NCBI GenBank assembly: GCA_964487615.1
Contig: CAZARM010000002.1
Location: 32,160-74,823 of the forward strand
DNA: 42,664 nucleotides
Source of the DNA: an uncultured Candidatus Saccharibacteria bacterium
GTDB lineage: Bacteria > Patescibacteriota > Saccharimonadia > Saccharimonadales > CAZARM01
Reading direction: 5' to 3'
The notes under the pieces are model-generated. The model did not search any database. It was not told the origin of the DNA and saw only the letters and a list, made by a program, of their open reading frames with translations. A program made the translations under genes and the position numbers. Below are positions 7,360-26,797 of this stretch, in pieces. Within the stretch, counting starts at the first letter, position 1, and the number at the start of each line of letters is the position of its first letter.

Positions 7360-7389
7360 TTGACAACCTAAAACGTCCAAGAGTATGGT
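7360..7389 (+). promoter_or_regulatory. candidate sigma70-type promoter for the small gene at 7432
   Basis: TTGACA (7360-7365), an 18-nt spacer, then TATGGT (7384-7389). Confidence 0.35.
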
Positions 7390-7431
7390 AGGAAGTACCA
7401 AACTAATGTGAAGAGAGGGAGAGACATAAGC

Positions 7432-7629
7432 ATGGCTTACAAGCACACAAATTCTAAAGGGGTGACTTACTACCTAAACTCAAAGAACGTTACACTTCGC
7501 GGTGGCAAACAGCAAATGATTTACTACTTCAGCAAGGACGAGCGTCCTGAAGCTACTGATCTACCAGCTGGTTACTCTGTAAATGAGAACCCACGTAACG
7601 GTTTCTTGACCATCAAAAAAGGCGCCTAG
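7432..7629 (+). CDS. small basic protein (65 aa), unknown function
   Basis: GAGGGAGAG Shine-Dalgarno region upstream of the ATG at 7432, and a strong terminator downstream. Confidence 0.6.
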   Translation: MAYKHTNSKGVTYYLNSKNVTLRGGKQQMIYYFSKDERPEATDLPAGYSVNENPRNGFLTIKKGA

Positions 7630-7664
7630 ACAGCACCCTTTAGAAATTTCAAAGAAAAATTTGT

Positions 7665-7700
7665 AAGTGGCCGGATCTTAAATGTTTCGGCCACTTTTTT
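7665..7700 (+). terminator. intrinsic terminator
   Basis: AAGTGGCCG / CGGCCACTT stem followed by TTTTTT. Confidence 0.7.
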
Positions 7701-7711
7701 GATACACTGAG

Positions 7712-8473
7712 ATGCGGATGAGTAAAATCCTAAAAGTTGAGAATTTGGTCAAGAAATACGAGAAATTGACGGCCGTTAATGATATTAGCTTTGAAGTCGA
7801 AGCCGGTGAAATTTTTGGCATCCTTGGCCCTAACGGCGCCGGCAAAACGACGACCCTAGAGATGATCGAGGCCCTGCGTCCCATAGATGGTGGCAGTATC
7901 ACTGTGGATGGTCTGGATGTTGCCAGCCAACCGCAAAAGGTCAAGTCTATCATCGGCGTCCAGCCACAGAGCCCCGCCTTTCAAGACAAGACCAAGCTAA
8001 CCGAGCTAATCGACCTGTTTTCGGCAGCGTACGGCGAAAAAGTCCACGCTGGTAAGTTTTTGAAAGAAGTCCAGTTATCGGACAAGGCCAACAGCTACAT
8101 AGAAACCCTGTCAGGCGGCCAAAAGCAGCGCTTTAGTATTGCTGCGGCGCTGGTGCATAACCCCAAACTTTTCTTTCTGGACGAACCGACTACGGGATTG
8201 GACCCCCAGGCTCGTCGTAACCTCTGGCAGCTTATCCAAGAGATTCGCGACAAGGGCGTGACAGTAATCCTAACCACCCACTATATGGATGAGGCCGAGT
8301 TGCTCTGCGACCGGGTGGCTATTATGGACAAGGGCAAAATTATAGCCCTCGATACGCCCAAGAACTTAATCACTGCCTTACTCAAAAAAGGTTTCAAAAA
8401 AGCCCAGCATGTCGAGCAAGCCAACCTAGAAGACGTATTCATTGATTTAACGGGCAAGGATTTGAGGGAATAG
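7712..8473 (+). CDS. ABC transporter ATP-binding protein (ABC-2/DrrA-like)
   Basis: Walker A GPNGAGKTTT, signature LSGGQKQR, Walker B LFFLDEPTTGLD. Confidence 0.9.
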   Translation: MRMSKILKVENLVKKYEKLTAVNDISFEVEAGEIFGILGPNGAGKTTTLEMIEALRPIDGGSITVDGLDVASQPQKVKSIIGVQPQSPAFQDKTKLTELIDLFSAAYGEKVHAGKFLKEVQLSDKANSYIETLSGGQKQRFSIAAALVHNPKLFFLDEPTTGLDPQARRNLWQLIQEIRDKGVTVILTTHYMDEAELLCDRVAIMDKGKIIALDTPKNLITALLKKGFKKAQHVEQANLEDVFIDLTGKDLRE

Positions 8474-8475
8474 CC

Positions 8476-9591
8476 ATGGATAGTTTCAAGAAATCGCTCC
8501 TAACTATTTGGACGTTCGCTCGCATTGATGTGAAACGGACTTTTCGTGACAAAGTAGCCCTGTTCTTTACCTTTGTGTTCCCGTTGATCTTTCTGTTCAT
8601 CTTTGGTGGCTTGTTTGGAAAAGACCAAAATGTATCGTTCAAGGTAGCTTTGATTAACGAATCCAAGTCGGAATTTGCCCAGAACTTTGTAACTCAAGCC
8701 AAAGACTCCAAGGTGTTAAAAGTTGACGCTGATGCCACTAGCCTTGACGCCGCTCGTCAAAAGATGGACCGCGATGAGCTAGACGCTGCCGTTATCCTAC
8801 CTGAAGATTTTGGAGTGGTAACCGACAAAGCCTATCCAACGGGACAGGCCAAGATTGTCTACAATCAGAACAATGAGCAGGCCGCCCAAACTCTGAGTAC
8901 CGTGCTGGATGGCATCTTCAAAGGCATCAACACCCAATTTGTGAAAACTGACACGCCGTTCAGCGTAACAACTGAATCTACAGCCAAAGTTGGCCTGAAC
9001 CGCTTTGACTATACCTTTGCTGGGCTGCTAGGCTTTTCTATTCTAGGACTTGGTATTTTTGGGCCGACACAAGTCTTCCCACAGCTCAAAAAGCAAGGCG
9101 TCCTGCGCCGCTACCACACCACCACTCTACGGGTGTGGCAGTACTTTGTGTCAAATGCCTTGTCCAGCGCCTTCATTGGTATCTTGTCTGTGACGGCCAT
9201 GTTTGCCGTTGGCGTAACCGTCTTCCATCTAAACATGAGGGGTGATTATCTGAGCTTTGCAGCCATTGTGATCCTGGGGGTCATAACCTTGTTTGGTATT
9301 GGGCTGGCTGTCGGTGGTTGGGCTCAGAACGAAAACCAAGCCGCACCGCTAGCTAACCTAATAAGTTTCCCCATGATGTTCCTAAGCGGCACTTTCTTTC
9401 CACGGTTTCTAATGCCGGAGTGGTTACAGAAAATCTCTGGGCTATTGCCGCTCACACCAGTAATTGATGGTGCCCGTCTGATCATAACCGAAGGCAAAAC
9501 TTTCTTTGACATCATGCCACAAGTCGGCTTACTGGTTGCCTGGGCAATTGTTATCTACTCTATTGCTTTTCGGGTGTTCCGCTGGGAGTAA
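8476..9591 (+). CDS. ABC-2 type transporter permease
   Basis: N-terminal TM, a large extracytoplasmic loop, then five C-terminal TMs. Starts 2 nt after the ATPase stop. Confidence 0.85.
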   Translation: MDSFKKSLLTIWTFARIDVKRTFRDKVALFFTFVFPLIFLFIFGGLFGKDQNVSFKVALINESKSEFAQNFVTQAKDSKVLKVDADATSLDAARQKMDRDELDAAVILPEDFGVVTDKAYPTGQAKIVYNQNNEQAAQTLSTVLDGIFKGINTQFVKTDTPFSVTTESTAKVGLNRFDYTFAGLLGFSILGLGIFGPTQVFPQLKKQGVLRRYHTTTLRVWQYFVSNALSSAFIGILSVTAMFAVGVTVFHLNMRGDYLSFAAIVILGVITLFGIGLAVGGWAQNENQAAPLANLISFPMMFLSGTFFPRFLMPEWLQKISGLLPLTPVIDGARLIITEGKTFFDIMPQVGLLVAWAIVIYSIAFRVFRWE

Positions 9592-11698: not shown

Positions 11699-12109
11699 AT
11701 GAATGATCAAGCATTACAGCTTTTTGAGGATCCCGACAGACAGCCGCCAGTATCGGCTGAAGAACTTGATGCAAAAGTACGCCATATTAGTGAACAACCA
11801 ACCAAACGTTTGGCATCTGACGATAAACTATCTGAGGCTCACGCCGATTCTACAGCAATCCGTCCGGCCTGGGAGAATGCTTTAGCGGGTGATTTGCCGA
11901 ACGATGAAGATGCAATTGCTACCCCAACGACTCGCCCTCACAGACCCTTTGAAATGCCCCGCAGAGAAAAAAGTAATACAACCCAGAACCTTACCCCTTT
12001 GCAAGCACAGAAAGGGGTGACCGAAGCCAAAATTGATAGTCTTGATGCTGAAACCAAAGCTGAGGTAGCGGCTGCAAGGGCCATACTTCACCGTGAACTA
12101 GGAAAATAG
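11699..12109 (+). CDS. acidic, probably disordered protein, unknown function
   Basis: ORF track only. Co-directional and tightly spaced with the next two genes. Confidence 0.45.
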   Translation: MNDQALQLFEDPDRQPPVSAEELDAKVRHISEQPTKRLASDDKLSEAHADSTAIRPAWENALAGDLPNDEDAIATPTTRPHRPFEMPRREKSNTTQNLTPLQAQKGVTEAKIDSLDAETKAEVAAARAILHRELGK

Positions 12110-12121
12110 TCAGGGGAGTCT

Positions 12122-13000
12122 ATGACAAAGACAAGCCCAGGGATTGGTCAGAAAAGTTTTTTTATACCCGATGCAGTTGTAGCACCGGAATTACCACCAG
12201 ATATTGATCTCGAACAGCGGACCAGTTTTAGTCATTTGATTTGTGTAATAAGCGATCATATGGATTTGCCACCTGACTTCACAGATCAGGTAGACCTAGG
12301 ACGGGTTGATCCGGTTTCAATAGAGGCTGGACTATATTTTGACAAACGCGAAGCATATGAAAAACGTCTGAAAAACGTATATGAAGGCATAGGCTTTACT
12401 GCCACGGACTTCATGGCTGTTACGCTAAGTCCGTCTACGTTGGCGACTAGAACATACGGACGAACTATGAAAGCAAATGAAAAACGACCGTCTGAAGAGC
12501 GGCTAGATCGTGATGAAGCTCATGATACGGCCAGTCGCTCGGCCGGGCATATACTTGAACAAAATACGGCACAACTGGAAGTACTTATAGGAGTATTAGC
12601 ACAACGGCGATTAGCCTTATTGCGTTTACACAGAGCCTTAAAAGCTCCAGGTCGGGCATATTTTGGTCAAACCGTCGCGGTCCTCGATGACTTACGCAAA
12701 GTAGCAAGCGATGCTATTCATCAAAGCATTGAAGTAGCTGCGACAAATTTGACGTGGGATGATAAAACAGCTGATGATCTTCAAGACGCTTTGCACTACA
12801 ACTTATACGGACATGCTAAACACAACAATCGTAGGATTGAATTCTGGAGACGTTACGTGCTGATGACAGGCAAATATACGAAAGAACAAATTGAGGCTGT
12901 CGGCCATTCACTAGAAATAACTGTCGAAGAGCTGGCAAAATATATGCCCTATTTAGAGGCAACTAAATCTAAGGAAGTTTCCTCTGAAGAACCTTCCTAA
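12122..13000 (+). CDS. hypothetical protein (292 aa)
   Basis: Long ORF 12 nt after the previous stop and 10 nt before dus. No motif recognised. Confidence 0.55.
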   Translation: MTKTSPGIGQKSFFIPDAVVAPELPPDIDLEQRTSFSHLICVISDHMDLPPDFTDQVDLGRVDPVSIEAGLYFDKREAYEKRLKNVYEGIGFTATDFMAVTLSPSTLATRTYGRTMKANEKRPSEERLDRDEAHDTASRSAGHILEQNTAQLEVLIGVLAQRRLALLRLHRALKAPGRAYFGQTVAVLDDLRKVASDAIHQSIEVAATNLTWDDKTADDLQDALHYNLYGHAKHNNRRIEFWRRYVLMTGKYTKEQIEAVGHSLEITVEELAKYMPYLEATKSKEVSSEEPS

Positions 13001-13010: not shown

Positions 13011-13922
13011 GTGTTGGCGCCAATGGACGATGTTACGGACACGGTTTTTCGTCAGGTTATCGCTGACACGGCGCCACCAGACTTGTTTTTCACTGAATTT
13101 GTGAATGTTGATGCGCTGCAGAGCAAGGGCCGGGAAGCCACACTCAAGCGACTTAGGTTTACCAAAAAGGAAAAACCCATCATCGCGCAGCTATGGGGTA
13201 AGCAGCCCGAGAACTTTTATAAATCAGCTCAAGAGTGTGCGCGCTTGGGCTTTGATGGAGTAGACCTAAACTTTGGCTGCCCGGAAAAAAACGTAGTACG
13301 CAACAATACTTGCTCGGCCTTTATCCTGCCAGCCAACAGGGGAGCAGCAGTAGAAATTATCAAGGCCACCCAAGAGGGCAGCGGTTCCCTGCCCGTTTCT
13401 GTCAAAACTCGTACCGGCTTTAGCGAAGTAGACTTTACATGGCACAAGCTGCTTTTGGAGCAAACACTTAACATGTTAACTATACATGGCAGAACTCGTA
13501 AGCAAATGAGCAAAGTCCCCGCTGACTGGGCGGCCATTGAGCACATCCGAAAATTACGTGATGTGCTCTGCCCCACCACTTTAATCGTCGGCAATGGCGA
13601 TGTCTTGACCCGACAACAAGGAGAAGTGCTGGCACTTAAGCACCGGCTGGACGGCATCATGATTGGTCGGGGGATCTTCACCGATCCATTTGTCTTTGCG
13701 GCTAATAGTCCGTGGGCCAGCTTCACCCCTGAGCAGCGAAAACAGCTGTACCGCGATCACGTAATGCTGTTTGCCAAAACCTGGCAGCCTCGTGAACGCA
13801 AACTTCATACACTTAATAAATTCTGCAAAATTTATATCAATGGCTTTGATGGAGCCAAAGAATTACGCGAGCAATTAATGGCCGCGGAATCAATCAAAGA
13901 CCTGGAAGGTTTGTTAGCATAA
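13011..13922 (+). CDS. dus: tRNA-dihydrouridine synthase
   Basis: LAPMDDVTD..FR, DLNFGCP, HGRT...G.ADW and NGD motifs of the Dus TIM-barrel family. Confidence 0.85.
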   Translation: MLAPMDDVTDTVFRQVIADTAPPDLFFTEFVNVDALQSKGREATLKRLRFTKKEKPIIAQLWGKQPENFYKSAQECARLGFDGVDLNFGCPEKNVVRNNTCSAFILPANRGAAVEIIKATQEGSGSLPVSVKTRTGFSEVDFTWHKLLLEQTLNMLTIHGRTRKQMSKVPADWAAIEHIRKLRDVLCPTTLIVGNGDVLTRQQGEVLALKHRLDGIMIGRGIFTDPFVFAANSPWASFTPEQRKQLYRDHVMLFAKTWQPRERKLHTLNKFCKIYINGFDGAKELREQLMAAESIKDLEGLLA

Positions 13923-14099: not shown

Positions 14100-14645
14100 A
14101 TGAGTACCCAGTCACGGCTCGGCAACGAGCTACGATCTACCGCGCGCCGTCTCATCACAGTCCCTGCTCGTATTTTCAGCCAAACTAGTCTTCGTCAGAA
14201 ATTTATCTATGGGTCAGCCGCTATGCTGACTCTTTTTATTGCTCCTGCAGCCACTGCTTCATTTAACCCCGACGAACAACCGGTGATTAACAGTGAAGTT
14301 ACAAGCCAAACTAGCGCTGAGGTGCCCGCTCCCGCAGAGCCCGCCAAAGAACAGGCTACAAATAAGAGTGAAACTAGCCAATCAACTCCAGGTAACAGTA
14401 CTAGTGTTACCAATAACAATGGTGAAGTTAAAGTAATGATCAACGGCCAGGACGTACCTGTGCCTAAGAACGGAACTGTTAAACACCAGACAAGTGATGG
14501 AACCACAACCATTCAAACTGAGACGCAATCCTCTGGCGGCAATAGTTTTAACTCAACCACCACTTTCAGTAATTCAACTTCCACCACTATCAATAACAAT
14601 CAAACTAATTTTCAGAATCAAAATACATACAGCTCAAACCCCTAA
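14100..14645 (+). CDS. exported Ser/Thr/Asn-rich protein, first gene of the surface locus
   Basis: AGGAGG Shine-Dalgarno, a hydrophobic signal (AAMLTLFIAPAATA), and low-complexity S/T/N/Q content. Confidence 0.6.
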   Translation: MSTQSRLGNELRSTARRLITVPARIFSQTSLRQKFIYGSAAMLTLFIAPAATASFNPDEQPVINSEVTSQTSAEVPAPAEPAKEQATNKSETSQSTPGNSTSVTNNNGEVKVMINGQDVPVPKNGTVKHQTSDGTTTIQTETQSSGGNSFNSTTTFSNSTSTTINNNQTNFQNQNTYSSNP

Positions 14646-14750
14646 CGTAGGCAGGTGTCCGTTCGACCCGGTTAGATGAGCTGTCATCTCACCAGGTCGG
14701 GTGAACACCCGAGAAAACCTAATCAACTATTAATTAAGAGAGGAGTAACT

Positions 14751-15338
14751 ATGAAAAAGTTACTACGTGCAATCGCAGTTGCAATCTTGGGTGTTAGCAT
14801 GACAGCTGGCATGGCAAGCGCAAGTACCGGTAATGTAAGCAACACCGGCCCAAGCTCAAACAACAACATTGCTTTTAACGGTACAACTACAACTGCCGTT
14901 ACTAGCACAAACGGTGCAGGTGTCGTCAATCTAAACGGGCAGACTTCTGCCTCAGGTGCAGCTAACACTTCAAGCAACACCAACGCCGGTGGCGCAGCAA
15001 GTGGTTCAGCTAGCAACGCTGCAAGCACTAGCTCCAGCGTAACTCAGGGTAATTCTGGTGCTATGGCTGTAGCCGTAGCTGCTGCCGCCAACAATGGTGG
15101 TAGCAACAGTGCTTCTTTGAACAACACTGGTCCTAGCTCAAGCAACACGGTTTCATTTAACGGCAACACTAACACTACCGTTAACTCAACCAACAACGCT
15201 GCTGTATTGAACTTCAGCAACCAGAACGCAACTTCTGGCAGCGCTAATGTTTCAAGCAACACCAACGCCGGTTCTGCTACTACTGGAAGTGTTTCTAACA
15301 CTAACAACACTAGCTCCAGCGTTTCTCAGAGCAACTAA
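14751..15338 (+). CDS. secreted protein made of two 'NTGPSS...' modules
   Basis: GAGAGGAG Shine-Dalgarno and ATG at 14751. Signal peptide MKKLLRAIAVAILGVSMTAGMASA. Two ~85-aa repeats (SNTGPSSNN.I.FNG.T.T.V.STN...N..Q.A.SG.AN.SSNTNAG.A.SGS.SN...TSSSV.Q.N). Confidence 0.75.
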   Translation: MKKLLRAIAVAILGVSMTAGMASASTGNVSNTGPSSNNNIAFNGTTTTAVTSTNGAGVVNLNGQTSASGAANTSSNTNAGGAASGSASNAASTSSSVTQGNSGAMAVAVAAAANNGGSNSASLNNTGPSSSNTVSFNGNTNTTVNSTNNAAVLNFSNQNATSGSANVSSNTNAGSATTGSVSNTNNTSSSVSQSN

Positions 15339-15409
15339 TACTAAAGCGAAGTAGTTGTTTTACTCGTCGGGTTTGAAAGGTCGCTTACAACCGATTAAAT
15401 CCAAGTGGC

Positions 15410-15438
15410 GGAGAGAACGCTAATCAAGCGTTCTCTCC
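15410..15438 (+). terminator. 12-bp perfect hairpin after the two-module gene (no U-tract)
   Basis: GGAGAGAACGCT, loop aatca, then AGCGTTCTCTCC. Confidence 0.4.
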
Positions 15439-15495
15439 CCAACCGAGTCCAAAGTTCAAATCAACCCAAACCCTAAGCATCAAAGGAGCAAGGCC

Positions 15496-17571
15496 GTGCA
15501 GTCACTACCGCGATATATCAAAAATGCTTTGATCTGCATTACGGTCTTCGTCCAAGTTTTCTTGCCTACTGCGGTACTAGCTCAAGAAGCTAACACTAAC
15601 GTTACTGATCCTGCTGATTCGATGGGGCAGTCTGCAGAATCTGTAACGCCAGAAGAAACTCCGGCAGCAAAAACCGACACCAGCACCAATGATCAAACCG
15701 ATCCTGCAGACCCTTCAGCTGCGGTTGGCCCACAGACAGCCACTGGACCGCAAACGCCTACTGGACCACAAACAACGACTGGTCCGACTAGCCCAACTGG
15801 CGTAAGTGGTTCGACCTATGTCTATAATGACAAAACTGGTCTTTGGGAAAACGATTATTACACTTGGGACCCAGTAACCAAGCAGACCAAACCCAAGCAG
15901 AAACAAGACTATAGTTATAATCCTTTGACTAAAATGTGGGATACCACAGAATGGTACTTCAATCCGACCACGCAAAAATACGAAGAAAACAAAATCTCTG
16001 TAACCAGCAATCCCAACGCAGCCTTACGCTCTGGCAACGCAAGCATTGGCAATACTGGTCCTAACTCTAATAACACAATCAATCTAGGCGGCAATAACAC
16101 CGGTACCTATGACCTGTTCTTTGACTCTAGTATTAGTAACCAAATCGGTCAGCTTTCCCAGAGTGGTGATGCTACTGTTCAAAACAACCTGCAGGGCGGC
16201 GGAGCTACCAGCGGTGACGCTGAAACGCTACTCAACTTGCTTAATATGCTGCAGTCGTCATGGGGGGATTTGGGTAGCGACAATATCTCTACCTTTATGG
16301 CCAACATTGACGGCGATATTTATGGTGATCTAATGATTGACCCCAGCGGTATACCTGTTAGTGGCGGCGACTCTAACATTGACGTCAATGTCTCAATGAA
16401 CGGATCAATAAATAATGATATTGATGTTACTGCCCAGAGTGGTGACGCCAGTGTGCGCAATAATACCAACGGTGGATCGGCTAAGACTGGGGATGCTCGT
16501 GTGCTAATTAACCTAATCAACATGATCAACTCAGCTATCAAGTCCAATAAATCATTTGTTGGAGTGTTAAATATCAACGGTAATCTAGAAGGCGACATTC
16601 TGCTGCCACCAAACTTGCTTAATGCTATCATCGCCAGTAGTGGTCCGAACTCTAGCAACACCATTAATGCTGGTGGTGATCGTAATTTGAACGTCAACAG
16701 TACCACTAATACCACCATCGATAATAATATCGATGCCCAAGCTGCTAGTGGCGACGCCACAGTTGACAGTAATACCATTGCTGGAGGTGCTCTGACAGGC
16801 AATGCCGAAACCAACATTCGCTTACTTAACCTAACTGGCCATCGAGTGGTGGCTAGCAATGCCTTGATAGTGTTTGTCAATGTGTTGGGATCGTGGGTTG
16901 GGCTGATAATGGACGCCCCAGCAGGCACTTACTCGGCGGCTATCACTGGCCCCAACTCGACCAACACCATAAATGCTACCGGTAATCACAATACCGACAT
17001 TGACATCACCGCCAATAGTCAGATAGAAAACAATATAAAGGCGCGGGCAGCTAGTGGTGACGCATCAGTCACTGGCAACACCCATGCTGGTGACGCTACC
17101 AGCGGTGACGCTTCGGCCAATGTCAATGTACTCAACATGGTAGATAGTGACTTCCATCTGTCTGATTGGTTCGGCATATTGTTCATCAATGTCTTTGGCT
17201 CCTGGAAAGGTAGCTTCGGCGTCAATACGCCATTTGGTGACGGAGTGCCTGGCGGTAGGGGTGGCAGCCCATTAACAGCTAGTAGCCCTAATAATTTTGC
17301 GGCGGTTCCAGCCACCACAGCCGGCACATTTGCCTTCATACCTCAAAGCAATACTACTGGCTCAAGTCATACCACTGGCACAGTCAGCGCATCAGCCGCG
17401 ACCACCACAACGCCAGTCGTGGCTGCCAGCCAAATCCAGAAAGATGCTCAACCCATAGCTACTGACTCTGGAGCCGGCAATACTTCTCGAAACTGGTGGC
17501 TAGCTAGCTTTAGCATGATCGCTTTCTTGATACTGGTTGGCGCCGAGCGCTTTAGCAACCCCCGCCCGTAA
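15496..17571 (+). CDS. large multi-module surface protein with C-terminal TM anchor
   Basis: AAAGGAG Shine-Dalgarno plus GTG start and a signal peptide. Then a TGPQT tandem repeat, aromatic [YW]x[YWF][ND]PxT repeats, three TGPNSxNTIN motifs, four SGDA[ST]V..NT.GG.A.[ST]G[DN]A motifs, and a C-terminal TM (WWLASFSMIAFLILVGA). Confidence 0.8.
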   Translation: MQSLPRYIKNALICITVFVQVFLPTAVLAQEANTNVTDPADSMGQSAESVTPEETPAAKTDTSTNDQTDPADPSAAVGPQTATGPQTPTGPQTTTGPTSPTGVSGSTYVYNDKTGLWENDYYTWDPVTKQTKPKQKQDYSYNPLTKMWDTTEWYFNPTTQKYEENKISVTSNPNAALRSGNASIGNTGPNSNNTINLGGNNTGTYDLFFDSSISNQIGQLSQSGDATVQNNLQGGGATSGDAETLLNLLNMLQSSWGDLGSDNISTFMANIDGDIYGDLMIDPSGIPVSGGDSNIDVNVSMNGSINNDIDVTAQSGDASVRNNTNGGSAKTGDARVLINLINMINSAIKSNKSFVGVLNINGNLEGDILLPPNLLNAIIASSGPNSSNTINAGGDRNLNVNSTTNTTIDNNIDAQAASGDATVDSNTIAGGALTGNAETNIRLLNLTGHRVVASNALIVFVNVLGSWVGLIMDAPAGTYSAAITGPNSTNTINATGNHNTDIDITANSQIENNIKARAASGDASVTGNTHAGDATSGDASANVNVLNMVDSDFHLSDWFGILFINVFGSWKGSFGVNTPFGDGVPGGRGGSPLTASSPNNFAAVPATTAGTFAFIPQSNTTGSSHTTGTVSASAATTTTPVVAASQIQKDAQPIATDSGAGNTSRNWWLASFSMIAFLILVGAERFSNPRP

Positions 17572-17577
17572 CAAAGA

Positions 17578-18672
17578 TTAAACGACTTGCTTAATTGGCC
17601 AAGTCAGGGTTTTGAGGAGTATTGTAATTAGCCACACGGCTACCTCGACCAGACTAATGATATAGAGCAAGCTAGCAGCCAGCGGTGCCAGCAGTATAAG
17701 TCGTAATCGGCTAGCCGAGGGAATATAATCGCTGGAGCCAATGATTAAGATGAGCAACAACGAAACAGCTGCCCAGACCACGCCGTACCAAGCAGGCGTC
17801 TTTAAATAAAGAGCTAAATATAGCAAGTAGCTAGTAACGGCGCAGCCGCCTAGCCATACAATGCCCAGTAGCAAACGGCGTTGACGGGTGTGGCGCATTA
17901 TGAGACGTACGTATGATCGGGAAGCCCCACTATAAACACTGAGGTTGTCGGCGTAGTGCATACGCACACTTGATCGCCGGTTCATTTTTAGGAGCGCCCT
18001 TAAGCTGGAACGACGATAAGCCGCAGGCTTGCGCAAAACGCTTTTTGAACGCTTGTATGTCCAGGAGCGTCCTTTGTGTAATCTATGACATACAACATAT
18101 TCAAACCGCTGTAAGAGGTTTAGCAAGCTAGGTTCCGCGATAATCCGGCCACTGAACTCTAGACCTCCTGCGTCGTGCAAGGCAAATTGCTCTAACACGC
18201 CCTTTAGTAGCTGCTTATCGATTGTCTGTTCGGCTTCTAACACTACAATAATTTCCCCACGGGTGAACTGGAGAGCTCGTCCTAGCAACTGCTCTGTGGT
18301 GGAGACTTTTCGGCTGTTACTAAGTTTCAAGCTTACCTTGGGGTGGGCGATTTGCCACTGTTTGACAGACATTGAGGTGTTATCTTTGGATGCGTTGTTG
18401 AGGACCACAATATTGTATTTGCGGTACGATCCACGGTACATACTGTCTAGGCAGCGAGCAACGTCGGCTTCACTATTGTGGGCAATAATAACCACATCTA
18501 TCAGCGGTCGTTTGCGGAACTTGGCGGCATGTGGATGATCACGCAATGGACCAGATTTCTTAAAACTCTGAAGATCATACAAGCTACCACGCAGCAGATT
18601 TACGCCGGCGGTAAGCAAAGCAAGGCTTCCTAGACTAGCTAGTGCAAGGGCAGGTAGTGATTCAAACTGCAT
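17578..18672 (-). CDS. membrane GT2-like glycosyltransferase homologue with substituted acidic motifs
   Basis: N-terminal TM and GT-A layout (VVIIAHNSEADVARCLDSM..., LQRFEY, RQRR). NNAS replaces DDGS/DGS, LEAE replaces LDAD, and three to four TMs lie at the C-terminus. Overlaps the sortase stop by 11 nt. Confidence 0.65.
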   Translation of the reverse strand: MQFESLPALALASLGSLALLTAGVNLLRGSLYDLQSFKKSGPLRDHPHAAKFRKRPLIDVVIIAHNSEADVARCLDSMYRGSYRKYNIVVLNNASKDNTSMSVKQWQIAHPKVSLKLSNSRKVSTTEQLLGRALQFTRGEIIVVLEAEQTIDKQLLKGVLEQFALHDAGGLEFSGRIIAEPSLLNLLQRFEYVVCHRLHKGRSWTYKRSKSVLRKPAAYRRSSLRALLKMNRRSSVRMHYADNLSVYSGASRSYVRLIMRHTRQRRLLLGIVWLGGCAVTSYLLYLALYLKTPAWYGVVWAAVSLLLILIIGSSDYIPSASRLRLILLAPLAASLLYIISLVEVAVWLITILLKTLTWPIKQVV

Positions 18673-19288
18673 GGCCGTCCACTTGAGTCAAAGAAAAATG
18701 GAACAGTTTGCGTAGTTCAAAAAAACTGCCGGTGCAAGTCTGGATAGTTAACCGTGGTGGCCCCACGTAACTAAATACCGAAACATCGTTAGGTTTTAAG
18801 TCCTCCGCCGACGTAAATGTGTAGGTAAAGACGTGGCCATTGTCGGTTTTGATCTCGGCGATTCCGCCAGGCGTGATTTTCTTTAAATAATAAAACACTT
18901 TTGGATTGTAGTGGCCGTAAACAAGCGTGTTGCCATTGGAGTCGTTAGGCAGCGACGAAGGCATGGCAAAGTAGGCTTTGTCGCCTTTGAGCGTCCAGGT
19001 TCGGTTATCGGGGTTGTAGAACCCTTCTTCCAGTAATTTGTCTATCTTGAGCGATGGTATAACCACTTCGACTGGCTTGCCGGAGATGACCGGTTTTGCA
19101 GCTACAACCTTAGCGACGACGGGCGGTGGACTATAGGCCACCACGACAGCTGGTTTAGAGAAATAATTAGGCCGCAGCAAGTACCCGGCAAAAAGCAGCG
19201 TGAGCACGTAGAGTATGCTCACGCTGCCGTAGTACCTGATCTTTCGAAGTGGCATGGACTGCCTCTTGCGCATAGATTTCCTTACCAA
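18662..19288 (-). CDS. sortase (small, single N-terminal TM; class-F-like)
   Basis: Catalytic His context NTLVYGHYN, Cys context LTIQTCTGS and a downstream Arg (ELRK). The likely ATG is at 19273. Confidence 0.85.
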   Translation of the reverse strand: MVRKSMRKRQSMPLRKIRYYGSVSILYVLTLLFAGYLLRPNYFSKPAVVVAYSPPPVVAKVVAAKPVISGKPVEVVIPSLKIDKLLEEGFYNPDNRTWTLKGDKAYFAMPSSLPNDSNGNTLVYGHYNPKVFYYLKKITPGGIAEIKTDNGHVFTYTFTSAEDLKPNDVSVFSYVGPPRLTIQTCTGSFFELRKLFHFSLTQVDGHAV

Positions 19289-19311
19289 GCTTGAAGGGTA
19301 GCTACCCTAGC

Positions 19312-19854
19312 TTATTTCAGTGCGAAACGACGGTAGCCGCTTACTGCTACTTGAGCGCTAACAGCTACCAAGCTGATAGCGGCCACGCCGATTGCTAAGT
19401 CGCGAACAGTCTCGCTTGCGCCAGTCGCAGGCAGAGCTTTTACGCTAGCGGCACCTTGACCACCAGCTGGAGCTGGAGTAGCGGCTGTTGTGGAACCACC
19501 ACCTTGTCCACCTACTGGAGCTGCGGCAGCGGGTGCTGCAGCACAAAATTGTGATAGGTCAGTAGCGACTGCATTAACATTTGCGGTGTCCCCGCTAGTG
19601 GCGCTACCGCTAATGGTGTTGCCAGAAACATTAGCTGTGCCGCTGCTGGTAGTCTGGACGTTGCCATTGGCAACAGTGACGCCGTTAGCGCAAGTAACAG
19701 TCACAGTGTTGTTGGTGTTGTCGACGCAAGTATTTGTTGAGTTTGGCCCTGTATTGCTAAGGCTACAGGTGTTGGCGGCCTGAGCCCCAACTGTTGCTGT
19801 GCTGACACTTAGCAACAAGCTAAGAGCGGCCAGTCCTTTTAATAGTTTTTTCAT
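19312..19854 (-). CDS. LPXTG cell-wall-anchored protein carrying one 'NTGPNS' module
   Basis: AGGAGG Shine-Dalgarno and a signal peptide. Module SNTGPNSTNT...SGTANVSGNTISGSATSGDTANVN. C-terminal LPATG, a hydrophobic stretch, then RRFALK. Confidence 0.85.
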   Translation of the reverse strand: MKKLLKGLAALSLLLSVSTATVGAQAANTCSLSNTGPNSTNTCVDNTNNTVTVTCANGVTVANGNVQTTSSGTANVSGNTISGSATSGDTANVNAVATDLSQFCAAAPAAAAPVGGQGGGSTTAATPAPAGGQGAASVKALPATGASETVRDLAIGVAAISLVAVSAQVAVSGYRRFALK

Positions 19855-20042: not shown

Positions 20043-20118
20043 GGGGGTGTAGCTCAGTGGTCAGAGCAGCGGGCTCATAACCTGTTGGTCGTAGGTTCAA
20101 TCCCTACCACCCCCACCA
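20043..20118 (+). tRNA. tRNA with CAT anticodon (elongator Met or lysidine-modified Ile2)
   Basis: 76-nt cloverleaf folded by hand: GGGGGTG / CACCCCC acceptor, GCTC/GAGC D-stem, anticodon loop CTCATAA, GTAGG TTCAATC CCTAC T-arm, encoded CCA. G1-C72 is paired, so it is not an initiator. Confidence 0.9.
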
Positions 20119-20188: not shown

Positions 20189-22867
20189 ATGAAATGGTAC
20201 CAACAAACTCCTGAGGCGGCACTTCAACAACTTGGCGTAACCGCCTCTGGCTTAAGCTCTAGCGAGGCCAAAAAACGGCTTACTGAGTATGGCTCAAATC
20301 AGCTTCACGCTGGTAAGAAGCTAAATCCCCTTAAGATTCTACTCAGCCAGTTTCAAGACGTCTTGATTATTATCCTGCTGATTGCTGCAGCCGTATCATT
20401 TTGTTTGGGCGTCGTAGAAGAGGGTGCCAGCACAAAAGAGTCCATATTAATCATAACTATTGTGGTGGCGATTGCAGTAGTTGGGTTTTTCAATGAATAC
20501 AAGGCCGAGAAAACGGTAGAAGCGCTCAAGCAGCTAGTAGCCTTCAAGGCCCGTGTTCGCCGTGACGGCAAAGCTGTAGAAGTTGACACCATGGACTTGG
20601 TTCCGGGTGACATCGTGACATTAGAAGCCGGTCAAAAAATACCAGCCGATATTCGAATCCTTGACTCAAGTCAACTAGAGGTAAACGAAGCCTCGCTAAC
20701 CGGAGAATCGCTGCCGGTGTCTAAGACGAACCAGGCTTTGACTCAAGAACTAAGCTTGGGCGATCAAAAAAACATGCTGTTTGCCGGAACTTTTATTTCC
20801 GGTGGTAGCTGCACGGGCTTGGTCGTGGAGTCCGGACAAAAAACAGAATTAGGCAAAATTGCTGAACTAGTTGAGGGCGTCGAAAAGGAAGCTACGCCAA
20901 TGCAGATCAAACTGGATGACCTGGGCCGGCGCTTGGGGTATTTCATCACCATCATCTGCGTTGTGGTCTTTGGCATTGTCTTTGTCTTTGTGCATCAGGA
21001 TGGTGATCAGAGTCTGATCCATCGCCTGGTTTTTGCATTTACGGTAGCGGTAGCACTGGCAGTCGCTGCTATTCCAGAAGGTCTGGCCTTTGTAGTGCGG
21101 ATTTCTCTGGCCCTAGGCGCCCGGCGCATGGCCGGCAAGAACGCCCTAGTGCGCAAGTTGTCCGCCGTAGAAGCGTTGGGATCAACCGATATTATTTGTA
21201 CTGATAAAACGGGCACACTGACAAAGGGCGAAATGACGGTCCGCAGCCTATACGTCAACGGCCAAACCGGTGCAGCTAGCGGCAGTGGTTATGAGCTCCA
21301 CGGCACGCTGGAATTTACCACACCGCCACCCAGCCTTAACCACCTACTCGAGCTTGGCGTGCTCTGCAATAATGCTAGTCTACATAAAGATGGGATATTG
21401 GGGGATCCGACGGAGGGTGCCTTTCACGTTTCGGCTGGCAAGGCTGGCCTGAGCAAAGCTGAGCTCGCGAAACGATACCCCCGGGCACGGGAAGTTCCTT
21501 TTAGCTCAGAACGCAAGCTTATGAGCACAGTTCATAAGTCTAGCCAGGGCTACCTGGTAGCAACCAAAGGCGCCGTGGAAATGACGCTGGAGCGCTGCAG
21601 CAACTTCCTGGACGCCAGTGGACAAATCCGGCCTATAACCCACGCGTTTAAAAAAGAGGTTTTACTAAAGAACCAAGAATTCGCTAAACAAACACTGCGG
21701 GTAATTGCCTTTGCCTCCAAGCTGGTTAAAGCCGAGCCAAAAGTTGGGTCAGAAATTGAAGCCGATCTAACGTTTGTAGGTCTGCAGGCCATGATGGACC
21801 CCCCACGGCCAGAGGTGGTCGAAGTAATCCACCGCGTCACCACCGAAGCTGGCATGAGGGTAATCATGATCACCGGTGATTATATTGAGACCGCCAAAGC
21901 CATAGCCAAAGAAATTGGGCTGAAAGGGGCAGCTATTTCCGGCGTGGAGTTAGATAAAATGACTCAACCAGAATTTGAGAAGTGCGTGGAGGACATCAGC
22001 GTCTACGCTCGAGTTAACCCGGAGCATAAGATCCGTATTGTCCAGGCGCTTAAAAAACGCGGCCACCAGGTGGCCATGACCGGCGATGGTGTCAACGACG
22101 CGCCAGCAATCAAAGCCGCCGACATTGGCATTGCCATGGGCATTACTGGTACCGACGTTGCCAAAGAAGCAGCCGATATGATTTTGCTGGACGACAAGTT
22201 CCTGACCATCATTAACGCCATCGAAGAAGGCCGGGGCATCTTTGATAACGTCCGCAAATTTGTAAACTTCCTAATCAGCTGCAACATCGCGGAAGTTATC
22301 ACTGTCGTCTTGGGTATCGTGCTGTTCAAAGATCTCATGCTGACCGCTGCCCAACTGTTGTTTATCAACATCGTAACTGATGGTCTACCAGCAATAGCAT
22401 TAGGCTCTGATCCGGCTCAGTCTGATGTTTTGCAGTCTAAACCAAAACGGTTCCAGGGCGCCATTGTGTCTAAGCGTATTTGGGCAGAGATATTTATATT
22501 TGGCTCGCTGATGAGCGTTGCGCTGGTCAGTCAGTTCTGGTTTGATCATACCCACGAGAGTCGCTTTGCGGCTGTGTCAGCCGTATTCACGGCCATGGTA
22601 GTCTACGAGATTGTTCGACTTATTGATATCCGTACCGATTACAAAATTCGCTGGTTCTCCAATCCTTGGTTAAGTGTGGCGATTGCTTCTTCGCTGATTC
22701 TTCAGGTAGCCGTACTATATGTGGACAGTCTGGCCCACTATTTTGACGTTGGTCCACTGAAGGCCCATGACCTAGTGATTATGGCCGTTGGCTCGGCTTC
22801 CCTAATCGTAATTATGAAGTTGCTTAATCCAGTCCTGGACCGCAAGCTGGGGCCGGAGCTTTCATGA
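20189..22867 (+). CDS. P-type ATPase, Ca2+-transporting (type IIA/SERCA-PMCA-like)
   Basis: TGES, ICTDKTGTLT, MITGD and MTGDGVNDAPAIKAADIGIAMG motifs. Ten-TM layout, 892 aa. Confidence 0.9.
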   Translation: MKWYQQTPEAALQQLGVTASGLSSSEAKKRLTEYGSNQLHAGKKLNPLKILLSQFQDVLIIILLIAAAVSFCLGVVEEGASTKESILIITIVVAIAVVGFFNEYKAEKTVEALKQLVAFKARVRRDGKAVEVDTMDLVPGDIVTLEAGQKIPADIRILDSSQLEVNEASLTGESLPVSKTNQALTQELSLGDQKNMLFAGTFISGGSCTGLVVESGQKTELGKIAELVEGVEKEATPMQIKLDDLGRRLGYFITIICVVVFGIVFVFVHQDGDQSLIHRLVFAFTVAVALAVAAIPEGLAFVVRISLALGARRMAGKNALVRKLSAVEALGSTDIICTDKTGTLTKGEMTVRSLYVNGQTGAASGSGYELHGTLEFTTPPPSLNHLLELGVLCNNASLHKDGILGDPTEGAFHVSAGKAGLSKAELAKRYPRAREVPFSSERKLMSTVHKSSQGYLVATKGAVEMTLERCSNFLDASGQIRPITHAFKKEVLLKNQEFAKQTLRVIAFASKLVKAEPKVGSEIEADLTFVGLQAMMDPPRPEVVEVIHRVTTEAGMRVIMITGDYIETAKAIAKEIGLKGAAISGVELDKMTQPEFEKCVEDISVYARVNPEHKIRIVQALKKRGHQVAMTGDGVNDAPAIKAADIGIAMGITGTDVAKEAADMILLDDKFLTIINAIEEGRGIFDNVRKFVNFLISCNIAEVITVVLGIVLFKDLMLTAAQLLFINIVTDGLPAIALGSDPAQSDVLQSKPKRFQGAIVSKRIWAEIFIFGSLMSVALVSQFWFDHTHESRFAAVSAVFTAMVVYEIVRLIDIRTDYKIRWFSNPWLSVAIASSLILQVAVLYVDSLAHYFDVGPLKAHDLVIMAVGSASLIVIMKLLNPVLDRKLGPELS

Positions 22868-23360: not shown

Positions 23361-23876
23361 CTACAGCAGAGCTTCGGCAACCAAGAAAAATATCAACACA
23401 CTGAACAAATTCTGAACCACTGTGGCAATTGGGCCGCTGGCCTCGGCCGGATCGTCATGCAGGCGCCAGAAGAGGTATGGTATGAGCGCCCCGGTAAGTG
23501 GTGACGACAAGATACCACAAAACAGCGAGACCCCGATCACCATTCCTATATCTTGGGAACCGGTGATTAGAGTGGTTGCTATCGCGGCTACCGTTCCGAT
23601 CACCAAGCCCACACTTAGTACAATGACCAGTTGTCGCTTCAGGAACCCCCGGAAGCTAAAATTAACCTTTTTACTTAACTGACGAATGATAATAGCTTCC
23701 ATTTGGGTGCCAACGGCGTCACTCATGTAAACCACCAATGGAATGAAGCTGGCCAGGATCAGATTTTTCTCCAGGGTGCTTTCAAAGCTCCGGATAACTT
23801 GGGCTATACCCAAGCTTAAGCACAAGCCCAGTAATAGCCATGTTAATCTAGTTTTAATTTCTTTAGCGTATGGCAT
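23361..23876 (-). CDS. MgtE-family divalent-cation channel, transmembrane domain only
   Basis: ASFIPLVVYMSDAVGTQMEAIIIRQL and DDPAEASGPIATVVQNLFSVLIFF match the MgtE TM domain. No N-terminal or CBS domains (171 aa). Confidence 0.7.
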   Translation of the reverse strand: MPYAKEIKTRLTWLLLGLCLSLGIAQVIRSFESTLEKNLILASFIPLVVYMSDAVGTQMEAIIIRQLSKKVNFSFRGFLKRQLVIVLSVGLVIGTVAAIATTLITGSQDIGMVIGVSLFCGILSSPLTGALIPYLFWRLHDDPAEASGPIATVVQNLFSVLIFFLVAEALL

Positions 23877-24382: not shown

Positions 24383-26797
24383 CTAACTGGCATACAGCTT
24401 TTTCTTGATCGCCTGGGCGCAAAGTAGGTAGGCAATCAGTACGCCCGCCAAGGCAGCCATCTGAGCCGGTATAAGTAGGCCAAAATGAAACACATTGCGG
24501 ATAGGCGTTAGCACAACTACTAGTGCAATCAGTGCCACCGTCAGTGTGCTGACCACAAGCAGGACTGCTGGCTTGCTCTCTTTGAACGGCACGAGACGAG
24601 TACGGATGACATAGACTACGAAAATCTGGGTAAAGATCGACTCCAGGAACCAGCCCGACTGGAACACTGACTCATGAGCATGGAAGATAAGCAGCAAAAT
24701 ACCAAATGTCGTAAAGTCAAAAACCGAGCTAAGCAGCCCGTAAGACCACATGAAACGCTTGATATGCGCTATGCTCAGCTTATGAGGCTGAAGTATTTCT
24801 GAGAGGTCGACATTATCCAGCGGTATGGCTAGCTGGGAGCCATCATAGAGCAGGTTATTCAGCAGAATCTGGGTAGCTAACATCGGCAAAAACGGCAGGA
24901 ACAGCGAAGCGCCGGCCATAGATAGCATATTACCAAAGTTAGAACTCAAGCTCATACGCAAATATTTCATGGTGTTAGCAAAGGTCTTGCGGCCCTCTAC
25001 AATCCCATTGGTCAGTTCATGCAGACTTTTGCGCAGCAAGATAAAGTCAGCCGCGTCCTTAGCCACATCGACGGCGTTATTAACCGATATACCCACGTCA
25101 GCCGCTCGGAGGCTAGGGGCGTCATTTATGCCATCTCCCATGTACCCCACGACATGTCCGTTTTGCTGCAAGGCTTCGATAATCTGCATCTTTTGTTCCG
25201 GGTTGACGCGAGCAAAGACGGTGGTGTGTTCCACGACTTTCAGAAGCTCGGTCTGGGAAAGTTTGGTCAGTTCGTCCCCGGTCAATGTATGTTCGATCTG
25301 TAGCCCAATGTCCGCCGCTATCTTTTGAGTCACGTAGGCGTTATCACCAGTAATGATCTTGATACCAATACCCATGCTATCCATCAGCTTAAGGGTATCG
25401 GAGACCGACGCCTTGGCGGGGTCTAGGAATGCCAAGAAACCGTGAAACGACAGACCTTTCTCGTCGCTCAATTGGTAGTGGGCCTCTGGGCCAATTTCCT
25501 TGCTAGCAATGGCTAACACACGGAACCCGTTGCGACTAAGCTCGTCGTAGGTTTTCTGAATTGAAGTGCGTTTCAAAGGAGTTAGGTGGGTCTTGGATGA
25601 GTTATAGCTGTCCGAAATTTTAAGCACTTCCTCCGGCGCACCCTTAACAATTAGAAACCTTTGCTTTTGGTGAGTGTGCACTACCACTGCTTCGCGCTTG
25701 CGCTCAAAATCAAAGGGGATCTCGTCCACCTTCAGGTAAGCCGATATATCAACGCCCTTGTGGGCTTCAACTGCGGTATCCAGTGGATTCTGGAAAGACG
25801 TAGAAAATGTGCTGGCCAAATACCCCAGCAGTAGCACTTGGTCGGAGCTGTTGTTTTCTCCGTCGACGTACTTTACCAACACAATCTTGTCCTCTGTCAG
25901 GGTGCCAGTTTTGTCAGTGCATAGTACGTCCATGCTGCCAAAATTTTGGACAGCCGATAACTGCTTGACGATGACGCCTTCTTTTGCCATTTTGAGTGAA
26001 CCTTTAGTCAGATTCAGCGTAATAATTAGTGGCAGTAGTTCTGGCGTCAGCCCCACTGCTAGCGCCAAACTAAAAAGTAATGACTGCAGAATGTCGCGGT
26101 GGAAGAAGATATTAATCCCAAACACCAACACCACCAGTACAAAGGTGATCTTGACTATCAACAGACTGAACTCCTTGATTTCACGCTCAAACTCTGTAGC
26201 TCGCTTGGTAGATTGCAGGGCTGCAGCAATGTGGCTGAACTTGGTATTTTTCCCAGTTTCGGTCACCCGCATCAGCCCCTCGCCGCTAACAACGCCGCCG
26301 CCCATGAATACTTGGGCATTGATCGGTTTGGCTTGAGGGAATGATTCGCCCGTCAGGGCTGCCTCGTTAGTGAATAAATCAGTACCTTCTACCATTACGC
26401 CATCAGCTGGTACAATCTTGCCCGCCGACAGCATGACAATATCGCCCGGCACTAGCTCACTTACTGGGACCAAGTGAGTTTCAGATTCCCGGACAACGTG
26501 GGCCTTGACCCGGACCCTGTCTTTCAGGGCATCAGCCGCTTGCTGGGACCGGAAAGTATTGAGGAAGTCCAAACCAACGCTCAGTAGGACTATGGTAACG
26601 ATAATGAAGAAGCTGACTTTGTCACCAAAGAACAGCGACAAACAAGCCGCCAGCAACAGAATGATCACTAGCGGACTTTTAAAGCGCGCCAAAAAAGCCA
26701 ACAGCGCTTTGTTGTGGCCAGTTTCTTCTTGGACGACGTTTGGTCCATAGGTTTGCTGCAAGTGTTTGATTTCAGAAAACGAGAGGCCGCTTAGCAT
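24383..26797 (-). CDS. mgtA: P-type ATPase, Mg2+-importing MgtA-like (type IIIB)
   Basis: LTGES, LCTDKTGTLTEDKI, ITGDN and MGDGINDAPSLRAADVGISV are typical of MgtA/MgtB. Confidence 0.8.
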   Translation of the reverse strand: MLSGLSFSEIKHLQQTYGPNVVQEETGHNKALLAFLARFKSPLVIILLLAACLSLFFGDKVSFFIIVTIVLLSVGLDFLNTFRSQQAADALKDRVRVKAHVVRESETHLVPVSELVPGDIVMLSAGKIVPADGVMVEGTDLFTNEAALTGESFPQAKPINAQVFMGGGVVSGEGLMRVTETGKNTKFSHIAAALQSTKRATEFEREIKEFSLLIVKITFVLVVLVFGINIFFHRDILQSLLFSLALAVGLTPELLPLIITLNLTKGSLKMAKEGVIVKQLSAVQNFGSMDVLCTDKTGTLTEDKIVLVKYVDGENNSSDQVLLLGYLASTFSTSFQNPLDTAVEAHKGVDISAYLKVDEIPFDFERKREAVVVHTHQKQRFLIVKGAPEEVLKISDSYNSSKTHLTPLKRTSIQKTYDELSRNGFRVLAIASKEIGPEAHYQLSDEKGLSFHGFLAFLDPAKASVSDTLKLMDSMGIGIKIITGDNAYVTQKIAADIGLQIEHTLTGDELTKLSQTELLKVVEHTTVFARVNPEQKMQIIEALQQNGHVVGYMGDGINDAPSLRAADVGISVNNAVDVAKDAADFILLRKSLHELTNGIVEGRKTFANTMKYLRMSLSSNFGNMLSMAGASLFLPFLPMLATQILLNNLLYDGSQLAIPLDNVDLSEILQPHKLSIAHIKRFMWSYGLLSSVFDFTTFGILLLIFHAHESVFQSGWFLESIFTQIFVVYVIRTRLVPFKESKPAVLLVVSTLTVALIALVVVLTPIRNVFHFGLLIPAQMAALAGVLIAYLLCAQAIKKKLYAS

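Follow-up and report, generated by a model that had tools for sequence, protein, structure and literature searches.

An uncharacterized asparagine-rich module in free and anchored predicted surface proteins of Saccharimonadia

Saccharimonadia and other bacteria of the candidate phyla radiation live attached to host bacteria, and it is their surface that carries out this lifestyle. To our knowledge, no surface structures there have so far been given a molecular identity other than type IV pili and, in very recent work, Pam pili. What, then, would be built at the cell surface by a locus encoding four exported, highly polar proteins next to a sortase? We examined such a locus in a 42,664-nucleotide (nt) stretch of a Saccharimonadia genome (assembly GCA_964487615.1, contig CAZARM010000002.1, positions 32,160 to 74,823, forward strand), hereafter the window. 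The locus comprises six genes: those for proteins A, B, and C on the plus strand and those for a glycosyltransferase-like membrane protein (GT2-like), a sortase, and protein D on the minus strand (Table 1). All four proteins, A to D, were found at the open reading frames (ORFs) assigned to them by an initial annotation made from the DNA letters, and the Asn/Ser/Thr/Gly-rich composition that it described was borne out (the four residues together make up 45% of A, 63% of B, and 42% each of C and D).

The answer begins with a single domain. B, C, and D share a module of about 75 amino acids (aa) that occurs in a free, a membrane-anchored, and a putatively wall-anchored protein. Surface proteins with one domain in free and anchored forms are a kind already known; the domain itself is uncharacterized. 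In the chaplins of Streptomyces, ChpA to ChpH, short secreted forms co-assemble with long sortase-anchored forms, which tethers a surface layer (PMC5618241). With a probability of roughly 40%, we read the locus as a chaplin-like arrangement, in which secreted B would co-assemble with the module-bearing anchors C (in the membrane) and D (on the wall).

A module shared by proteins B, C, and D

Seven copies of the module, two from B, four from C, and one from D, were aligned by MAFFT without gaps and gave the consensus xSIxNTGPxSxNxI…VxNxNxVxVxN…QxAxSGDAxVxxNTxGGxAxSGDAxNxN…VxVxN. Composition-adjusted BLASTP connected B with D (E value of 2e-12), B with C (4e-10), and D with C (3e-7). In Smith-Waterman comparisons, 9 of 10 module pairs scored above all 1,000 composition-preserving shuffles (z of 5.9 to 13.5), and this test ruled out the module as a compositional artifact of low-complexity sequence. 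The homology of the modules is genuine and goes beyond composition. That three of the four proteins carry the module, as first proposed, was confirmed; A has none, since BLASTP of A against C found no similarity and only the composition is common to them. The copy numbers first given for D (one) and B (two) stood, and the "three to four" given for C became exactly four, the number found in 119 of the 120 C-family proteins retrieved by our searches.

We then asked how widespread the module is. In an exhaustive search of 1.84 billion representative proteins, a profile of the seven copies had 1,465 matches at an E value of ≤1e-3 and 730 at ≤1e-10. The best 150 matches were mostly proteins of about 600 to 750 aa bearing four modules, and other secreted module proteins were either about 100 aa long (one module) or about 280 to 390 aa long (three to four modules, often very acidic). 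A word-indexed search with a diverse module profile returned 12 short unnamed proteins only. None of the profile matches carried a name or a Pfam domain, and cluster look-ups gave "hypothetical protein" or no name at all. Isolated modules matched nothing in Pfam (E values up to 10) or NCBIfam, sequence searches of PDB with single sequences and profiles gave 0 matches for the module proteins, and the whole proteins A, B, C, and D gave nothing above noise in Pfam, NCBIfam, and PDB sequence searches. The Pfam matches at the locus are limited to the sortase and the N-terminal half of the GT2 domain. Nor did literature searches turn up a description of the module family in work on sortases, LPXTG proteins, S-layers or surface layers, functional amyloids, and the cell surface of Saccharibacteria and Patescibacteria. 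The module is an uncharacterized domain, absent from Pfam, NCBIfam, and PDB. This had been suspected from the start, and profile, PDB, and Foldseek searches led to no characterized family.

Protein B shows the module in its barest form. It consists of a signal peptide (…MASA/ST) and two modules (aa 27 to 101 and 119 to 195), with nothing more, and we therefore regard it as a secreted, anchor-free protein. Its start codon is preceded, 6 nt upstream, by the ribosome-binding site GAGGAG. Because B and the 99-aa single-module secreted proteins amount to the module alone, the module itself must carry the function. Mature B (171 aa, encoded at 14823 to 15338 of the window) lacks D, E, K, R, H, W, Y, and C altogether; it is composed mainly of 38 Ser, 36 Asn, 26 Ala, 25 Thr, 19 Gly, and 13 Val residues, with few Q, F, L, P, I, and M. 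It has no ionizable side chains, and its only aromatic residues are 3 Phe. The B orthologs of loci L004 and L005 are likewise uncharged, and acidic residues reach 26% in the B modules of other species.

Secreted proteins made only of one to four module copies were also found outside the C-type architecture (P0183, P0189, P0215, P0233, P0275, and P0288). All of these module-only proteins terminate exactly at the last module strand, "[VI]x[VI]xN", and many such proteins are very acidic (NTGPDSEN…VDNDTDIDVDNDTDQ…). P0183, on locus L084, has no C-type neighbor.

The module occurs with five modes of anchoring: none, a C-terminal transmembrane (TM) helix, LPXTG, a "VPVGAVAAG" signal followed by a TM helix, and an N-terminal TM helix. 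The single-module proteins of other species have an LPxTG motif with a 30-aa spacer, the "VPVGAVAAG" motif with a TM helix, or an N-terminal TM helix. In three of them (L031, 9607 to 10122; L032, 9763 to 10284; L058, 9750 to 10301; all on the minus strand), "VPVG(A/G)V(A/H)AG", a TM helix, and a basic tail replace LPXTG; this ending could be an alternative C-terminal sorting signal.

Protein A, which accompanies B and C, is organized differently. A basic N-terminal tail is followed by one TM segment or signal anchor and an S/T/Q-rich linker; a small motif then separates this linker from a tail rich in S, T, and N. Alignment of the A family revealed one conserved motif, "VxVNGQxVPVPxNG", and the only Pfam hint was a weak one to TcaA_3rd_4th (E value of 0.014 to 0.026). 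By these features, A is assigned to a conserved family of its own, made up of predicted single-pass membrane proteins without the module.

A conserved A-B-C core and an accessory sortase cassette

Synteny was examined in the best 80 loci from GTDB species representatives (all of them metagenome-assembled genomes), together with metagenome loci. C has more than 800 full-length homologs with 42 to 57% identity, and every named one belongs to Saccharimonadia or Saccharibacteria. A two-module B lies directly upstream of C in 73 of the 75 loci with enough flank. With jackhmmer, A-like ORFs were detected in 61 loci, and in 57 of these the ORF lies immediately upstream of B. On the other side of C, a sortase was present in 21 of the 48 loci (about 44%) with at least 3 kb of downstream sequence; 15 of these 21 had both the GT2-like protein and D, and 4 had D only. 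D adjoins the sortase in 19 of the 21 sortase-bearing loci. L001, L002, L086, and the window all have the gene order D, sortase, GT2-like. The architectures are fixed over species, with two modules in B, one in D, and four in C. Median identity to orthologs was 45% for C, 42% for the sortase, 41% for B, 39% for D, 27% for the GT2-like protein, and 26% for A; the last two are the fastest-evolving proteins of the locus. A-B-C is thus a near-universal core in related Saccharimonadia, and D-sortase-GT2-like is an accessory trio. Since the trio lies beside C in only 21 of 48 loci and stands alone in L086, the two are separable units that are often linked. The initial annotation had named missing synteny in relatives as a refutation of its model; a conserved set does exist, and it consists of these two units and not of one obligate system.

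These data bear on the question of whether the position of the trio means anything. D, the sortase, and the GT2-like protein could form a mobile sortase-substrate cassette that shares a domain with A-B-C and is otherwise unrelated to it, so that its place beside A-B-C would be without significance. The cassette may indeed be mobile, judging from its gene context. In L086 the trio (7001 to 9334) has no A-B-C nearby and is flanked by Mu Gam and GmrSD-like genes, and in the window it adjoins a tRNA-Met gene; it is not always oriented alike with respect to C, and 56% of the loci lack it. However, when neighboring ORFs of 82 loci were clustered, the only recurrent non-core neighbors were the sortase (21 loci) and the GT2-like protein (17 loci). 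The other neighbors of C were housekeeping genes found in at most 12 loci per family, gyrA, gyrB, and a Crp-type regulator being the next commonest, so the trio is by far the commonest non-core neighbor. It also recurs beside C orthologs that are only 38 to 53% identical, and its substrate, D, bears the very module that defines B and C. We consider a chance association of two unrelated units very improbable.

How D is likely to be anchored could be judged from its own sequence and from its neighbor. In D, a signal peptide precedes a single module, in which four Cys residues are conserved; an A/P/G-rich linker and an LPATG sorting signal follow. It starts with an MKKLL… signal peptide, and its end reads LPATG-ASETVRD-LAIGVAAISLVAVSAQVAVSG-YRRFALK, so that the LPATG, hydrophobic stretch, and YRRFALK tail first described are all present. 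Among 30 homologs, L141, P142, and T144 are at least 90% conserved, the tail is mostly of the YRR type, and the TM segment is kept. The adjacent small sortase matched Pfam PF04203 (E value of 9.2e-15); as first described, it contains the motifs TLVYGH and LTIQTCTG and has a stop codon (18662 to 18664) that lies beyond the start codon of the GT2-like gene (18670 to 18672), giving an ORF overlap of 11 nt. The two genes appear to be translationally coupled. Translation of the sortase may start at a TTG at 19288 or, more likely, at an ATG at 19273, which is preceded by an AAGGA ribosome-binding site. The His (YGH), Cys (QTC), and Arg (E[WL]R) residues are kept in the complete relatives that were aligned. 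As judged from these motifs, D is a genuine sortase substrate adjoining a sortase with an intact catalytic triad. No NCBIfam class model reached its cutoff with the sortase; the best was class F, at 28.5 bits versus 166, and classes D and E scored lower. The closest solved structure is Streptomyces SrtE1 (5cuw), a weak match (E value of 0.009). By these scores the enzyme is a divergent sortase outside the named classes A to F.

A dedicated sortase gene next to the gene of its LPXTG substrate is also found in sortase-assembled Gram-positive pili. Unlike in those systems, no conserved pilin-type Lys was found in D, whose single Lys (K139) is not conserved among the 30 homologs; an E-box was not found in D, and the sortase has no class C signature. 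This agrees with the first observation that no pilin motif could be recognized. D looks like a sortase substrate for anchoring only.

The third member of the trio resembles membrane GT2 synthases (PgaC/IcaA/BcsA-like and the XrtG-associated TIGR03111) in its N-terminal GT-A half and its multi-TM layout. An N-terminal TM segment is followed by half of a GT-A fold and by TM helices in the C-terminal part, where the hydrophobic segments are conserved. Pfam PF00535 matched residues 60 to 169 only (E value of 2.6e-11), PF13641 matched the N-terminal half only (7e-8), and the closest PDB entry, 6yv7, also covered only the N-terminal half. The NCBIfam matches, PgaC_IcaA (3.4e-11) and exosortase-associated GT2 (TIGR03111; 8.6e-9), had scores an order of magnitude under the cutoffs. 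A GT-A domain and multiple TM helices are thus present in the window copy, whereas the processive signature D…DxD…(T)ED…Q(R/Q)xRW is not. At the D and DxD sites the window copy has LNNAS and LEAE, versus [IV]D[ND]AS and LDA[DG] in relatives, and about 45 aa are missing, including the Q(R/Q)xRW region. These motifs are highly variable over 17 relatives, and the full canonical set was found only in L001 and L048. Because the D, DxD, and QxxRW motifs are gone, we treat the window protein as probably noncatalytic. The same loss makes surface glycosylation doubtful in this genome, so that the suggestion in the initial annotation of a "possibly glycosylated" structure is weak, and active glycosylation by the locus was downgraded as a candidate function. 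The degenerate copies nonetheless retain their TM regions, and the window copy overlaps the sortase gene; the GT2-like protein may have been kept as a membrane partner, a pseudoenzyme, of the sortase.

A GT2-like membrane protein and a sortase are typical of wall-biogenesis neighborhoods. In a further explanation, the ligand of the modules would be the peptidoglycan of the cell itself or a secondary wall polymer, and the modules would form an envelope filler or hydration layer without any defined fiber, that is, a hydrophilic uncharged matrix serving envelope integrity, desiccation tolerance, or phage shielding. The near universality of A-B-C in the class suggests a housekeeping role in the envelope, and such a layer would also agree with the extremely polar, Asn/Ser/Thr-rich composition, uncharged in this lineage, and with anchors at membrane and wall depth. 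However, the GT2-like protein is degenerate, Pfam and NCBIfam gave no match to SLH, LysM, CW_binding, or SH3b domains, and the acidic content of B, 0 to 26% between species, fits poorly with one conserved wall ligand. We regard a role as envelope filler as improbable.

Architecture of protein C and possible co-assembly of the modules

Protein C is the largest carrier of the module. From the N terminus, it has a signal peptide, a disordered P/T-rich linker, a Trp-rich domain, four extended repeats (aa 180 to 580), an S/T/A-rich disordered stalk of about 80 aa, and a TM segment. An alignment of homologs showed that C ends in a conserved "NxW…LLGG-ER" TM helix with a basic tail and that LPXTG is absent. 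An AlphaFold2 model built from 51 homologs had a mean predicted local distance difference test (pLDDT) score of 63, and the module cores, modeled as long beta-hairpin units, scored above 90. Each extended repeat comprises a strand of 18 to 21 residues, an SGDA turn, a short meander, a TGDA turn, and an 11-residue return strand, followed by a tail of hydrophobic strands (one or two, with the pattern F-x-N-[VI]-x-G-x-W), which B and D do not have. In the model, the module cores of C lean on these extra strands. NTGPxSxN, the best-conserved motif of the module, lies in each C repeat within the part modeled at low confidence. For D, a model from its 30 homologs had a pLDDT of 40 to 58 over the module, so that D by itself did not give a confident fold.

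The Trp-rich domain of C is all beta (pLDDT of 79 to 94), has the invariant residues N111, W124, T128, N142, and W148, and had no Pfam match. In the proposed arrangement it would be the tip of C farthest from the membrane, and it is a candidate glycan- or ligand-binding domain. This brings up another explanation, in which the module would be a "choice-of-anchor" ligand-binding domain: B, C, and D would be separate adhesins or lectin-like factors that do not copolymerize, and the common module would reflect a common ligand, e.g., a host cell wall glycan or another external ligand. C is laid out like a Gram-positive adhesin, and distal Trp-rich beta-hairpin domains are of a kind frequent in glycan binding. 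The use of the module on many anchors, the stand-alone secreted proteins with one to four copies and no C-type partner in other lineages, and the separability of A-B-C from the D trio all suit independent binding factors; moreover, the D module is braced by two conserved disulfides, as expected of an autonomous domain. On the other hand, Pfam matched no known lectin or carbohydrate-binding family, and B of the window, being uncharged and with 3 Phe as its only aromatics, would offer an unusual surface for specific binding. The strict A-B-C order and the fixed copy numbers point instead to a stoichiometric assembly. We find the ligand-binding explanation doubtful on balance.

We return to the chaplin-like arrangement. 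B, as the module-only secreted subunit, would probably be the most abundant component. C would be held in the membrane by its C-terminal TM helix and would present, above a disordered wall-spanning stalk, the strand-buttressed modules and the distal Trp-rich domain. D would be cut at LPATG by its adjacent dedicated sortase and covalently joined to the cell wall. A would act as a small single-pass membrane accessory protein, and for the degenerate GT2-like protein, partnership with the sortase in the membrane is a likelier role than active glycosyl transfer. Free B could then bind the modules of the anchored proteins through module-module beta-sheet contacts, and the result would be a surface coat or fiber tethered at two depths, at the membrane by C and at the peptidoglycan by D. 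The data establish the homology of the modules, the layout of the proteins, their anchoring signals, the intact triad of the sortase, the synteny, and the size of the family; co-assembly, its stoichiometry, the formation of a coat or fiber, and any role in host contact are what we infer. Since one genome region co-encodes free, membrane-anchored, and wall-anchored modules, the simplest mechanism would be a homotypic association of modules. The absence of the hydrophobic strands from B and D, together with the lack of a confident fold for D alone, fits a need for partner strands; the AlphaFold2 picture is compatible with co-assembly and is no proof of it.

The spacers around B were also analyzed at the RNA level. 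The stem-loop between B and C had a z of -4.85, and 0 of 200 shuffles folded equally well. Among 74 foldable B-C spacers, 74% had a z below -2 and 81% had a stem of at least 8 bp; the position of the hairpin is kept across species and its sequence is not (spacers of L001 to L083). Such a hairpin may be an intercistronic attenuator or a 3' stabilizer, which would yield more B than C, and its presence in about three-quarters of the species fits an excess of B. A hairpin between A and B was also predicted, with a minimum free energy of -31.8 kcal/mol and a z of -2.35. At the protein level, B and D vary together across species in their content of charged residues (rho of 0.47 to 0.62, n = 21); as evidence this is weak.

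Several results weigh against co-assembly. The co-variation of B and D was not corrected for phylogeny, and the charged-residue content of B does not co-vary with that of C. A shallow alignment, of 30 sequences, may be all that lies behind the low pLDDT of D, and the B-C hairpin has no T-run. The sortase, the GT2-like protein, and D are all absent from the 7 kb beside C in 27 of 48 loci, so the trio is not essential to A-B-C. Finally, Foldseek found in the C model no likeness to amyloid, beta-solenoid, or pilin folds: the matches to FapC (9nqd) and CsgA (8c50) had E values of ≥2 and probabilities of ≤0.01. In searches of PDB and BFVD with the same model there was nothing credible, the top viral match having a template modeling score of 0.06 to 0.12 and a root mean square deviation of 39 Å.

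How far does the locus resemble surface systems already described? It was tested for membership in the chaplins, curli/Fap, the Pam pili, and the sortase-assembled pili, and it belongs to none of them. The likeness to chaplins is one of logic only: one small domain in a free secreted form (B) and a sortase-anchored LPXTG form (D). There is no sequence kinship, PF03777 being matched by neither A to D nor the isolated modules (Pfam, E values up to 10). The chaplin domain is hydrophobic and about 40 aa long, whereas the module is highly polar, Asn-rich, and about 75 aa long. The module numbers are inverted with respect to chaplins, with two in the free form and one in the anchored form, and the four-module membrane-anchored C, the accessory A, and the GT2-like partner are additional. 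Chaplin sortases are of class E, and SrtE1 is, among solved sortases, the nearest, if weak, match to the window sortase.

With curli (CsgA/CsgB) and Fap, the locus has in common secreted, imperfect Asn/Gln/Gly/Ser/Ala-rich repeats built as strand-turn-strand units, a surface-attached paralog that could nucleate a polymer, and major and minor subunits separated within an operon. In contrast to those systems, no Pfam match to a curlin or Fap repeat was found, a PDB profile search gave 0 matches, the Foldseek probabilities were negligible as stated above, CsgG/E/F-type secretion components are lacking, the host is bounded by one membrane, and the repeat is about 75 instead of about 20 aa long.

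Pam pili occur in Saccharimonadia and Microgenomatia; they consist of immunoglobulin (Ig)-like pilins joined by donor-strand exchange, with PapD/FimC-like chaperones encoded beside ATP synthase genes, and the subunits, which are exported by Sec, are believed to need no trans-envelope machine for assembly and to be held by a protein that ends in a TM helix (bioRxiv 10.64898/2026.03.03.709456). The locus studied here shares with them the bacterial class, the combination of secreted subunits with a C-terminal TM tether, and the lack of annotation, which in Pam pili lasted until structures were solved. The C model had no PDB match by Foldseek. Pam pili were rejected as the identity of the locus: it has no chaperone-like or Ig-like Pfam match, and the window has no ATP synthase genes.

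A bolder form of the co-assembly reading can be drawn up, in which the module would define a new class of surface polymer. Stacks of secreted module-only subunits, joined through beta-sheet augmentation, would make up an asparagine-ladder sheet or fiber, nucleated and tethered by C and D, and this would serve Saccharimonadia epibionts as their main outer coat or as the layer in contact with the host. In this lineage the sheet or fiber would be uncharged, and the dedicated sortase of D would be paired with a pseudoglycosyltransferase. We think that such a polymer is unlikely. Whichever reading applies, the new element is a lineage-wide, unannotated A-B-C operon and a linked sortase cassette based on an unnamed domain with about 1,465 representative protein clusters, and the module genes are concrete candidates for a cell coat or for close-range host contact. 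A possible pairing of a sortase with a degenerate glycosyltransferase and a 171-residue mature secreted protein without ionizable side chains are of further interest.

Feature coordinates and neighboring genes

Table 1. Features of the locus, in window coordinates
Feature	Position	Strand	Remarks
Protein A	14100..14645	+	181 aa, predicted single-pass membrane protein
A-B intergenic hairpin	14654..14709	+	Long, imperfect RNA fold
Protein B	14751..15338	+	195 aa, predicted secreted, two modules
B-C stem-loop	15410..15438	+	Perfect 12-bp stem
Protein C	15496..17571	+	691 aa, four modules, C-terminal TM
Trp-rich beta-hairpin domain of C	15808..16005	+	aa 105-170
C module 1	16033..16260	+	Regex and ungapped MAFFT alignment
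C module 2	16342..16536	+	NTGP motif missing
C module 3	16621..16839	+	Regex and ungapped MAFFT alignment
C module 4	16927..17148	+	Regex and ungapped MAFFT alignment
C-terminal TM anchor of C	17482..17553	+	Helix 668-686 in model; kept in alignment
GT2-like membrane protein	17578..18672	-	364 aa, catalytic motifs degenerate
Sortase	18662..19288	-	PF04203, N-terminal TM anchor
Protein D	19312..19854	-	180 aa, one module, LPATG
LPATG of D	19420-19434	-	Sorting signal
D module	19543-19773	-	Single copy
tRNA-Met	20043-20118		Next after D

An Rfam scan of the window detected two tRNAs only, and promoter and terminator scans were at background level. Two P-type cation ATPases and a short MgtE-domain-only ORF are encoded just downstream of the locus (20189 to 22867, plus strand; 23361 to 23876, minus strand; 24383 to 26797, minus strand), and no tie between these genes and the module genes was seen in other species. 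Upstream of the locus, two adjacent ORFs of 136 and 292 aa without a Pfam match (11699 to 13000) precede a gene for a Dus-family tRNA-dihydrouridine synthase (13011 to 13922). Over the last third of the window (about 26000 to 42664), the GC content falls from about 0.49 to 0.41 to 0.46, and the genes there are ordinary ones, encoding ABC transporters, a short-chain dehydrogenase, a Crp-type regulator, PNPOx-like proteins, and a C39-like peptidase.

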